Shown: in pieces, positions 28,013-28,650 of the stretch | How positions within the stretch are numbered: position 1 is the stretch's first letter | Layout: the number at the start of each line of letters is the position of its first letter | Virus record (IMG/VR): IMGVR_UViG_3300030250_000013 | Direction: 5' to 3' (one strand) | DNA: 54,876 nt | DNA from: a virus | Taxonomy: Duplodnaviria > Heunggongvirae > Uroviricota > Caudoviricetes | Made by a program: the position numbers and the translations under genes | Notes under the pieces: model-generated | The model's input: the letters and a program-made list of their open reading frames with translations, nothing else | Databases searched by the model: none | Told to the model about the DNA's origin: nothing

Positions 28013-28049
28013 GATCACCTGTGAGAAATGTTTTCGTTATATTAGCACG

Positions 28050-28640
28050 AAAAAAAGCCGTCTTAAACAGACGGCAAATGGCTCTGGGTGATAATGAGGG
28101 TTTTACATAACTGGTCATCCACACCTGATGTCCCAACATACCCCTATGCGTGACCCGTGAATAACCAGTTATGTAAAACGACACGCAGTTCAGGATGTTT
28201 CACAACATGCTTTACCCACGATTTGCGGCTTTCCCGCCAGCAAGATAAGGATCACCTCCTTATCAGCGAGTGTTTGGGTTGTGGCGGTCGGTGCTGAACC
28301 CCGACTTAATGACGATAGGCGTGTACCGACGCCTCGTTTTACTTCCTCCGCTTTCACGGCTTCACCCTAGACCAGCTTTACGAAATCCTCGTAAACCTAA
28401 CCGCGGCAGATATGACCGGCACGGTGTGCCATATCACGGACCGGCGGGTGTCTCGTTCACCTGATTAACGCATCAGCCTGCGTATTCACCACAACGATAA
28501 GAGCACTGAGATGTATGATAATCGTCGCAGCACCACTTTAAACAACTCAATGCTCTTACCTGTTGTGTGCCGGTTACGTTTATCCGGCGTCTTTCGACCG
28601 ATTAAGTGATAGTGTCTGCTATGCAGTTCTGTCACTGACT
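28050..28640 (-). ncRNA. candidate structured noncoding RNA (promoter-to-terminator, ORF-free)
   Basis: ~600 bp with no convincing ORF on either strand; promoter-like TTGACC element at 28641-28665; terminator hairpin GCCGTC-N7-GACGGC plus U7 at 28050-28075; perfect 16-bp inverted repeat and several GNRA-type hairpins. Confidence 0.35.
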
Positions 28641-28650
28641 TAACAATAGG

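Follow-up and report, generated by a model that had tools for sequence, protein, structure and literature searches.

The window analysed here is the whole 54,876-nucleotide (nt) stretch of viral DNA held in IMG/VR record IMGVR_UViG_3300030250_000013. It belongs to a 9NA/Sasha-type siphophage, and its closest records are the Escherichia phages PDP46 and Bas82, Sashavirus 536P12, and Salmonella phage Sasha. A gap of approximately 640 nt (positions 28011-28650) lies between two complete genes in a region where the late structural genes are on the minus strand. Sequence comparison indicates that this segment is a chain of five structured, independently exchangeable modules (M0 to M4), and that M1 and M2 are members of a widespread, unnamed family of RNA cassettes related to transfer RNA (tRNA) in Enterobacterales phages. 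That the segment is a structured, modular, tRNA-related noncoding RNA (ncRNA) array of the minus strand is held to be highly probable. The proposed mechanism, in which the modules would be trans-acting mimics of translation components or tRNAs, is tentative and is held at clearly less than even confidence. The combined statement of identity and trans-acting mechanism falls just short of an even chance.

An exact 17-mer taken from one side of the M1 helix, its 5' strand, served to gather the array loci and gave 120 viral contigs with 92 distinct variants; gathering them in this way inflates the apparent sequence conservation of M1. All collected arrays share one module order, read on the window's minus strand. 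The outer stem of M1 pairs CACAAC (28567-28562) with GUUGUG (28495-28490) and is followed by a bulged A at 28561. The inner stem pairs GGUAAGAGCAUU with AGUGCUCUUAUC. The family signature is X6-A-GGUAAGAGCA...UGCUCUUNNC-X6', which is present in the window at 28567-28490 as CACAAC-A-GGUAAGAGCA...UGCUCUUNNC-GUUGUG. The general form across arrays is CACAAC-A-GGUAAGAGCAUU ... AGUGCUCUU(U/A)(C/U)C-GUUGUG, and the interior varies from 30 to 171 nt among approximately 78 distinct variants.

The closing helix of M1 was compared across 54 distinct sequences. Eight of its 19 pairs are changed on both sides, and 94.5% of cells are paired when read in sense, against 87.4% in antisense. None of 500 shuffles equals this covariation, and the signal collapses when the pairing partners are slid. 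Among variants the outer stem changes as a unit, being CACAAC/GUUGUG, ACUAUC/GAUAGU, or GCUAUC/GAUGGU. A more sensitive search located two conserved blocks (28600-28546 and 28515-28468) in 206 very different phage records, which include lambdoid, T1-like, N4-like-sized, Ackermannviridae, and other phages. These blocks are the opposite strands of one long helix with a variable middle.

M2 starts within the 3' strand of M1. Its acceptor-like stem is 9 base pairs (bp) long, pairs GUUGUGGUG (28495-28487) with CGCCACAAC (28286-28278), and is followed by an AA linker. A D-like hairpin lies at 28483-28468, and a T-like hairpin at 28305-28287 abuts the 3' strand of the closure. A loop-loop pairing is predicted between GCUGA (28477-28473) and UCAGC (28297-28293), and this contact of the D-like and T-like loops would be elbow-like. 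The position of the anticodon arm is occupied by a central domain of approximately 160 nt, predicted to be branched. The grammar across arrays is GUUGUGGUG-AA-(hairpin) ... (hairpin)-C(A/G)CCACAAC, and the window sequence at 28495-28278 follows it, with its start in the M1 3' strand and a CRCCACAAC end after a 5-bp hairpin. The 3' closure was called only where the adjacent hairpin is present; a closure search tolerant of G.U pairs gives spurious matches when used alone.

The M2 scaffold was compared across 19 distinct class-A sequences. Eight of 24 pairs are compensatory, with three in the D-like hairpin, three in the T-like hairpin, and two in the loop-loop helix. Paired cells make up 98.2% in sense and 94.7% in antisense, none of 500 shuffles equals the covariation, and the signal again collapses when partners are slid. 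One compensatory case is the window's own GUCGG/CCGAC, compared with GCCGG/CCGGC in the consensus. The loop-loop pair covaries in L043, where both loops are changed together and pair GUCGA with UCGAC. Short relatives of M2 fold as four-way cloverleaves, and a canonical T-arm is found in 15 of the 43 M2 variants and 10 of the 78 M1 variants. The combination of acceptor stem, 2-nt linker, D arm, and T arm in the M2 scaffold denotes tRNA topology, not membership. The M2 centre (28369-28383) has an identical 15-nt sequence, TCGTAAAGCTGGTCT, in common with positions 43345-43359, within a minus-strand gene of 587 amino acids (aa) at 42381-44144. The repeat reads in the sense of that gene and is probably a chance match (E = 0.025).

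M0 precedes M1 and matches Klebsiella Taipeivirus phages over approximately 32-35 nt with 97-100% identity, and T1-like phages with 84-91% identity. The GNRA loop occurs as GAAA, GACA, or GAGA. In Carvaje and VLCpiS10a the second hairpin has GCUGG/CCAGC in place of GCCGG/CCGGC, a compensatory change. A small hairpin stands first in the arrays as a leader; in lambdoid phages the tR' terminator takes this place.

The preliminary description of this DNA, made from the letters of the sequence, had proposed mimicry of 16S ribosomal RNA in the part here called M3. At 28249-28262 the window has its one copy of GGATCACCTCCTTA, an exact match, where 0.24 occurrences are expected by chance even with 2 mismatches allowed. 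The 14-nt match stands, but it lies on the strand that would not be transcribed. The RNA carries instead a long Shine-Dalgarno sequence, UAAGGAGGUGAUCC (28262-28249), which is the 14-nt complement of the 16S 3' end and is located inside a hairpin at 28264-28244. Further hairpins of M3 are GCGG-GAAAG-CCGC (28237-28225) and the GNRA hairpin AUGUU-GUGA-AACAU (28208-28195). Two of the M3 hairpins are compensatory across 9NA-like and Jedunavirus phages, with G:C exchanged for A:U and U:A for C:G. The core GGAGGUG(A/G)UC and the downstream AUCUUGCUG are kept in both groups, the A-to-G change in the core still pairs with 16S as G.U, and an anti-16S complement of 10-14 nt is conserved across phage families. 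A closure of M3 by CACAAC...GUUGUG was considered and rejected, since the 5' partner is missing from 9NA and the second GUUGUG is taken up in a local GNRA hairpin that shows a compensatory change.

The Shine-Dalgarno sequence raises the question of a small protein gene, either the 17-codon open reading frame (ORF) behind it or a 64-aa plus-strand ORF annotated in PDP46. This explanation has a very slight probability. It draws on the perfect 14-nt Shine-Dalgarno with a TTG in reach, and on the "hypothetical protein" calls placed here in PDP46, PJ16, Carvaje, and ZCEC13. When the window, 9NA, and Carvaje are compared, a hand count for the micro-ORF gives 2 synonymous and 4 non-synonymous differences, which is not a coding-type substitution pattern. 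In the Jedunavirus phages SBP and ZCEC13 it stops after 6 codons, because a C-to-U change there compensates a G-to-A change in the GCGG/CCGC hairpin. The micro-ORF given in the preliminary description is thus present without being conserved, and it probably does not encode a conserved protein. The plus-strand ORF runs across the swapped cassette described below and is absent from Sasha. The three longest ORFs within the gap (64, 55, and 49 aa) have no family in Pfam or PHROGs, in agreement with the earlier statement that the gap has no convincing ORF. A 235-bp core (28274-28508) is 95-99.6% identical to 119 complete Escherichia coli genomes, and in all 30 of those listed PGAP calls no gene on it and no annotation is present. 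A conserved protein gene was also sought in this slot in relatives and none was found; the slot is either noncoding or carries only non-conserved, oppositely oriented "hypothetical" calls.

The Shine-Dalgarno sequence is kept while the micro-ORF frame is not, and it therefore looks selected for itself, putatively for 30S binding, ribosome loading, or RNA protection. The known example of a STAB-SD sequence is Gram-positive and guards against a 5' exonuclease. The likeness to M3 lies in a very strong Shine-Dalgarno in a noncoding context, conserved without a conserved ORF, and any stabilising role of M3 would be hypothetical.

M4 contains the perfect 16-bp inverted repeat noticed earlier, which is real and extends to 23 bp (28100-28122 with 28157-28179). 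The repeat is 91% complementary as DNA and is fully paired as minus-strand RNA through two G.U pairs. Its apical motif UAGGGGUAUGU is common to T1-like and other phages, in which the stem is wholly different (CUUAAUAUCCAGC/GCUGGAUAUUAAG), and one pair of the T1-like stem is seen as U:A, U.G, and C:G. M4 is present in some relatives and cleanly absent from 9NA and Carvaje, and is accordingly an optional cassette.

The inverted repeat could also belong to a DNA-level element, such as a replication origin, a packaging site, or a protein-binding palindrome. The repeat itself and a near-DnaA box, TCATCCACA (28115-28123), speak for such an element, which nevertheless is extremely unlikely. One-mismatch DnaA matches number 27 in the window, 18 being expected by chance, and do not cluster here; the box in the loop of the repeat is present, but at chance frequency. 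The extension of the repeat pairs only as minus-strand RNA, M4 is missing from two relatives as stated above, no GC-skew feature is seen here (GC content 0.43-0.52), and all tRNAs are co-oriented with the modules. The origin or packaging option of the preliminary description has no support, with DnaA matches at chance and helices that pair better in sense. Five one-mismatch DnaA-box-like 9-mers occur elsewhere within approximately 420 bp, at 18159, 18390, 18534, 18549, and 18573. This stretch (18159-18581) is the only such cluster in the window and is a better origin-type candidate than the gap.

The minus-strand RNA from 28610 to 28040 has a minimum free energy of -217.9 kcal/mol, compared with -177.6 +/- 5.8 kcal/mol for shuffled sequences (z = -6.99, with 0 of 100 shuffles as stable), so the density of hairpins noted earlier exceeds chance. 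Compensatory changes across relatives are present in stems of M1, M2, M3, and M4, which is the covariation that the preliminary description had called for. Nearly all of the features it listed were recovered at or near their original positions, among them the hairpin at 28244-28264 and the long stem at 28498-28558. Its large structured minus-strand ncRNA is retained as a structured noncoding unit with a promoter-like site and a terminator, and is replaced, as a single large RNA, by a chain of modules. The coordinates of the modules and of the surrounding features are listed in Table 1.

Table 1. Modules of the array, associated signals, and flanking genes in the window.
Feature	Position	Strand	Description
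M0, leader hairpins	28568-28600	minus	CGGUC-GAAA-GAC.. and GCCGG-AUAAACGUAA-CCGGC; "CA" end directly before M1
M1, long bulged helix, 78 nt	28490-28567	minus	Closing helix and variable apical part
M2, tRNA-like scaffold, 218 nt	28278-28495	minus	43 distinct M2 variants known
M3, Shine-Dalgarno module	28195-28277	minus	Hairpins with compensatory changes
TTG-initiated micro-ORF, 17 codons	28190-28243	minus	Within M3; TTG 11 nt after the Shine-Dalgarno
M4 helix, 23 bp	28100-28179	minus	Two G.U pairs; encloses 34 nt; apical CAUA-GGGG-UAUG hairpin
Promoter-like site, sigma-70 type	28643-28671	minus	TTGACA-17-TATTGT; 10/12 consensus matches
Intrinsic terminator	28050-28075 (stem 28075-28057)	minus	GCCGUC-UGUUUAA-GACGGC + U7; terminator scan
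Upstream flanking gene	28651-29004	minus	117 aa; phrog_19242 residues 1-117/118, E = 3.8e-66
Downstream flanking gene, first of the head-tail region	27600-28010	minus	136 aa; phrog_21889 residues 1-136/136, E = 2.4e-85

The promoter-like element reported at the 5' end of the gap was recovered by a promoter scan. Its -35 hexamer lies inside the last codons of the upstream gene (stop codon 28653-28651), and we infer a transcription start near 28636. The same arrangement is kept in 9NA, Carvaje, and PJ16, ahead of different modules, and is an annotated promoter in AVIO78A. The element had been taken for a copy of a repeated promoter module; no other copy exists in the window at 3 or fewer mismatches, and the site is unique there. 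The terminator was also found as described, with its stem followed by seven T. It is annotated in Sasha and AVIO78A and is retained by all 9NA-like relatives, whatever modules they hold.

The contents of this slot differ between close relatives. The window and Sasha are 98-99% identical up to 28284 and from 28484, and between these points 199 bp of the window replace 39 bp of Sasha. Sasha contains M0, M1, a 58-nt M2, M3, and M4, and the window contains the identical set with a 218-nt M2. The breakpoints are exactly at GUGGUGAAU and CACAAC. Cassettes thus pass between unrelated phages by recombination within the conserved closing stems, where these breakpoints are located. The slot in 9NA has another leader followed by M3, between the same promoter-like site and terminator. 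PJ16 carries a tag-like module, another element, M1, a short M2, M3, and M4. Carvaje carries M0, an M1 variant, a tag-like module, M1, M2, a tRNA-Ser, and M3. Three P22-like phages, CUS-3, IME10, and Huey, share the 235-bp core of the window at 99% identity, and in them it lies between the Q antiterminator and holin genes. In the CUS-3 record, the conserved stretches that flank the matching segment are annotated as bsq3 and bsq4, or "boundary sequences". Lambdoid boundary sequences are likewise short conserved mosaic junctions; those seen here are paired RNA helices with covariation.

The anatomy of the unit, with a promoter-like site, an RNA cargo, and a terminator between operon genes, suggests an "RNA moron". 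Phage morons are likewise units of promoter, cargo, and terminator between two genes of an operon, and differ in that their cargo is a protein gene. Arrays in IME207, T1-like phages, and Jedunavirus are antisense to the flanking structural genes and stand behind near-consensus sigma-70 promoters. They finish in terminators of their own and often include tRNAs. An analogy with integron attC sites, based on AAC/GTT core sites and extrahelical bases, was examined and rejected. CACAAC/GTTGTG departs from the RYYYAAC/GTTRRRY pattern, an integrase is lacking, and the strand of the elements is tied to that of tRNAs.

True tRNA genes occur in or near these slots. Each of the 27 tRNA genes located between -300 and +1200 nt relative to an M1 has the orientation of that M1, and the modules of the window are on the minus strand together with the promoter-like site, the terminator, and the flanking genes. 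A bona fide tRNA-Arg(UCU) stands at the position of M2 in L021, L026, L108, and L113, where it overlaps the GUG of the M1 3' strand. Sf6 has tRNA-Asn and tRNA-Thr directly after tR', and CUS-3 and lambda have M1 and M2 between the same flanks. A tRNA-Ser lies between M2 and M3 in the slot of the Klebsiella relatives Carvaje and VLCpiS10a. Some P22-like phages have tRNA genes at this position of the late operon, and their excision from late mRNA is unstudied (PMC8022706). The lambdoid late-operon tRNAs (Asn/Thr of Sf6, Asn/Leu of phage L) are in the same slot after tR' and before the lysis genes, and are co-transcribed (PMC8022706). Unlike these tRNAs, the window modules have no anticodon arm or CCA, and M2 has a large non-tRNA insert.

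A decaying tRNA cluster, with boundary sequences that serve homologous recombination only as DNA and folds that are leftovers, would account for the real tRNAs in the slots of relatives, the exchange breakpoints within conserved stems, and the bsq3 and bsq4 labels around the matching segment of CUS-3. This history is very unlikely. Four different helices carry double changes that restore pairing, and the G.U intermediates are specific to the sense strand, neither of which decay would produce. It would not keep a 17-mer exact across Enterobacterales families, and it would not build large, ordered expansions on a retained scaffold.

Several sister arrays also carry a 10-codon frame from GCA to TAA that closely resembles the E. 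coli transfer-messenger RNA (tmRNA) tag, ANDENYALAA. It is found in PJ16 (L004) just after the same promoter-like site, in HK620 (L009) at 1310-1342, in Klebsiella phage Magnus (L007) at 1277-1309, and upstream of M1 in Carvaje (L132) and VLCpiS10a (L135). The variants are ANDDVVLMAA*, ANEEMYLAVA*, ANDDLMLMAA*, ANEERFLMAA*, ANDDVILMAA*, and ANEEMYLAAA*, and synonymous variants also occur among them. An A-rich stretch precedes the frame, and there is no start codon. The tag-like modules score 10-26 bits with the Rfam tmRNA models, for which the threshold is 47-50, and ARAGORN calls no tmRNA at them. The frame may be a phage-encoded template that mimics trans-translation, and no description of it was found in the literature. 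A search of the window for such frames gave none in the gap and a single match near 44090, inside a gene.

Arrays of this kind extend well beyond the 9NA-like phages. In lambda (NC_001416), M1 is located at approximately 44787-44862 and M2 at approximately 44857-44941, immediately after tR' and before S. The short M2 of lambda (L131/L185) is closed by GUUGUGCUG/CAGCACAAC. Lambda positions 44787-44941 are unannotated apart from the hypothetical orf-64 (44621-44815), which overlaps the 6S/tR' region and the first bases of M1. M1 was not found in the E. coli K-12 prophages DLP12 and Qin. The Qin prophage (L187) does contain an M2-like 5' start, AUUGUGGUGAAGUGCAGG, near 1641171 on the minus strand between cspB and essQ, without an upstream M1.

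When one genome per species was searched across 100,044 species, the 17-mer had 49 occurrences, of which 17 are true M1. The other 32 have no 3' strand, and their number agrees with a chance expectation of approximately 35. Sixteen of the 17 true M1 belong to prophages of named Enterobacterales genera (Escherichia, Klebsiella, Enterobacter, Kluyvera, Serratia, Yersinia, Pantoea, Erwinia, Pectobacterium, Rahnella, and others). The remaining one is in a metagenome bin labelled Cellvibrionaceae and may be a binning error. Strict conservation of the 17-mer across host families suggests that M1 is recognised by a conserved host factor.

Rfam 15 at gathering score gave no match in the whole window, GOLLD, ROOL, YrlA, HEARO, and ribozymes included. 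At E up to 10 it gave only chance-level matches to microRNA and small RNA (sRNA) models. Applied to the window, lambda, HK620, CUS-3, Magnus, and 12 loci, Rfam found only tRNAs, Lambda_thermo, and one STnc100, none of which falls on M0-M4; lambda M1 and M2 are also unmatched. Literature on the sequence, on lambda late-leader processing, on phage tmRNA-like RNAs, and on 9NA-like phages held no description of these modules, and no paper was found that describes M1, the array grammar, or the tRNA-like reading.

The closest known RNA is STnc100 (RF02076). Its consensus has the layout of M2. A UGGUG/CACCA closing stem leads into AAU and a 5-bp hairpin whose loop is 6 nt long, and another 5-bp hairpin abuts the 3' strand; this likeness was judged by eye and not by profile comparison. 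STnc100 and PasD are located downstream of Q in the lambdoid late region (bioRxiv 10.64898/2026.05.13.724894; PMC12370729), as are the lambdoid M1 and M2. Magnus holds both STnc100 and M1/M2 within one noncoding region. Unlike STnc100, the M2 of the window has an approximately 160-nt centre, other hairpin loops, a 9-bp closure, and no terminator of its own, and it belongs to a chain of modules carried by a virulent siphophage. The two thus appear to have a related architecture, and the window M2 does not appear to be a member of STnc100. We infer here that STnc100 can itself be read as tRNA-like.

The resemblance bears on the possibility that the modules are Hfq-type base-pairing sRNAs similar to PasD and STnc100, in which the scaffold would give stability or processing and the variable domains would carry the seeds. 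PasD and STnc100 are abundant Hfq-associated RNAs for which RIL-seq shows many partners, and PasA arises by cleavage of a longer transcript (bioRxiv 10.64898/2026.05.13.724894). The UGGUG-AAU-hairpin ... hairpin-CACCA layout is shared with M2, and the array ends in a terminator hairpin and U-run, a typical Hfq site. The STnc100 model (gathering threshold 47 bits) gives the window no score even at E up to 10, with Magnus as the positive control at 52.9 bits. There is no antisense match of at least 12 nt to the rest of the phage genome, and the only 15-mer, at 43345-43359, is in the same sense as the gene there; no antisense target was therefore found within the phage genome. M2 has no terminator of its own, and neither PasD nor STnc100 has an established function (PMC12370729; bioRxiv 10.64898/2026.05.13.724894). 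On balance the Hfq explanation is quite unlikely.

Two other comparisons were made. A tRNA-like domain fused to a long helix is likewise seen in the tmRNA tRNA-like domain and in the bacterial Y-RNA-like YrlA, and sister arrays add ssrA-like tag frames. Unlike tmRNA and YrlA, the array matches no model at threshold, has no rsr (Ro60) gene nearby, and in the window lacks the tag module. GOLLD and ROOL are multi-domain ncRNAs of phages and prophages, often next to tRNAs or containing them. Their structures are given in bioRxiv 10.1101/2024.12.08.627333. They differ from the array in being found in other host clades and in having one large fold, and the array is a string of swappable cassettes without an Rfam match to them.

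According to the proposed mechanism, host RNA polymerase would transcribe the array, starting at the array's promoter, reading through from the capsid genes, or both. Host RNase P, RNase III, and RNase E would cut it at the conserved helices into stable pieces. These pieces may act in trans on the translation apparatus or on factors directed at tRNA, as mimics of tRNA, tmRNA, or mRNA. They could be decoys for defences that target tRNAs, or could bind 30S subunits through the 14-nt Shine-Dalgarno. The translation theme is drawn from the company of the modules, which occur with tRNAs, tRNA mimics, tmRNA-tag-like frames, and a very long Shine-Dalgarno.

The main rival to this mechanism is a cis-acting punctuation or attenuation element of the late operon, composed of RNase III or RNase P sites and end-protecting structures, without any trans function. 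Its helices and terminator would uncouple the abundant capsid mRNA from the low-copy head-tail genes. The segment lies between the capsid-proximal gene and the first head-tail gene, and the promoter scan gave no promoter-like site between the array terminator and the ATG at 28010. A second strong terminator-like hairpin (29046-29023, minus strand), of 10 pairs followed by a T-run, is present directly after the major capsid gene (stop 29066), which places the array between two terminators within the late gene block. The helices of M1 and M4 are 23-24 bp, a size that would suit RNase III substrates, and the lambdoid modules come shortly behind tR', where the late transcript has its 5' end. The cis explanation is nevertheless judged unlikely. 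The same modules occur as stand-alone antisense units in IME207, T1-like, and Jedunavirus phages, and module content varies freely between near-identical phages. Punctuation needs neither variable cargo domains nor real tRNAs in the slot, and 9NA manages with M3 and the terminator alone.

Several results weigh against a tRNA-related, trans-acting array. ARAGORN finds no tRNA or tmRNA gene in the window, the Rfam tRNA model (cmscan) has no match in 27900-28800 at E up to 10, the tmRNA models RF00023, RF01849, and RF04321 have no match in the window, and the STnc100 model is silent there as stated above. No acceptor CCA end or tRNA identity element is evident in M2, and G3.U70 is not present in the window modules. 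M2 alone folds only modestly better than its shuffles (z = -1.66), the loop-loop covariation comes from the single sequence L043, and for the 160-nt centre of the window M2 only near-identical copies exist. The shared GUUGUG cannot close M1 and M2 simultaneously, and the fold in vivo is uncertain because this sequence is common to both closures. The bias of the 17-mer collection also belongs here. Finally, the position between high-copy capsid and low-copy connector genes, the terminator, and the lack of a downstream promoter fit a cis-acting role equally well.

A wider reading of the trans-acting array is speculative and is thought somewhat unlikely. It holds that the Enterobacterales-wide phages share an unrecognised system, with one instance in the window, in which conserved closing helices (M1 and the acceptor-like stem of M2) package swappable RNA cargos, with two cassettes in lambda and STnc100/PasD as one branch. 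The cargos would be true tRNAs, expanded tRNA mimics, tmRNA-tag-like templates, and long-Shine-Dalgarno modules. Host tRNA-processing enzymes would release these cargos, which could then manipulate translation, ribosome rescue, or tRNA-targeting immunity late in infection.

If the array is correctly identified, a conserved RNA family supported by covariation has been overlooked in the best-studied phages, lambda included, and is also present in P22-like, T1-like, 9NA-like, Jedunavirus, and Ackermannviridae phages. STnc100 and PasD, two prophage sRNAs that are poorly understood, would gain a structural context from it, and the "boundary sequences" of mosaic junctions would be paired RNA helices. 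Phages would further appear to trade RNAs that mimic tRNA, tmRNA, and mRNA as cassettes. Spurious small ORFs would lie over these RNAs in the deposited genomes of Magnus, ZCEC13, PDP46, PJ16, and Carvaje.

In Magnus, more than 2 kb (1100-3420) is annotated as a string of ORFs of approximately 30-70 codons. This region looks like a long noncoding array, and the small ORF calls are probably spurious. The Magnus M1 has a tRNA-like interior with a D-arm-like GGUAGA and a T-arm, GGUUCGAUUCC. The same array includes an M2, a free-standing copy of M0, further T-arm hairpins, and the STnc100 match (3072-3286). "Hypothetical protein" coding sequences placed over modules, often on the opposite strand, are also present in ZCEC13 (L133), PDP46 (L003), PJ16 (L004), and Carvaje (L132), and these small calls are likely mis-annotations.

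The two genes that flank the gap are complete. The start of the downstream gene had been set at 28012; the full-length phrog_21889 match places it at the ATG at 28010. The match begins at this ATG, and the N-terminal extension of the ORF at 27600-28184 is not real, as had been guessed. The gap had also been described as the only long ORF-free stretch of the genome. It is the longest ORF-poor gap, but it is not the only one, as 12 further gaps in the window, with lengths from at least 200 nt up to 549 nt, are also without an ORF of at least 70 aa. Among these are three stretches of 395-549 nt, at 44145-44594, 49414-49808, and 53500-54048.

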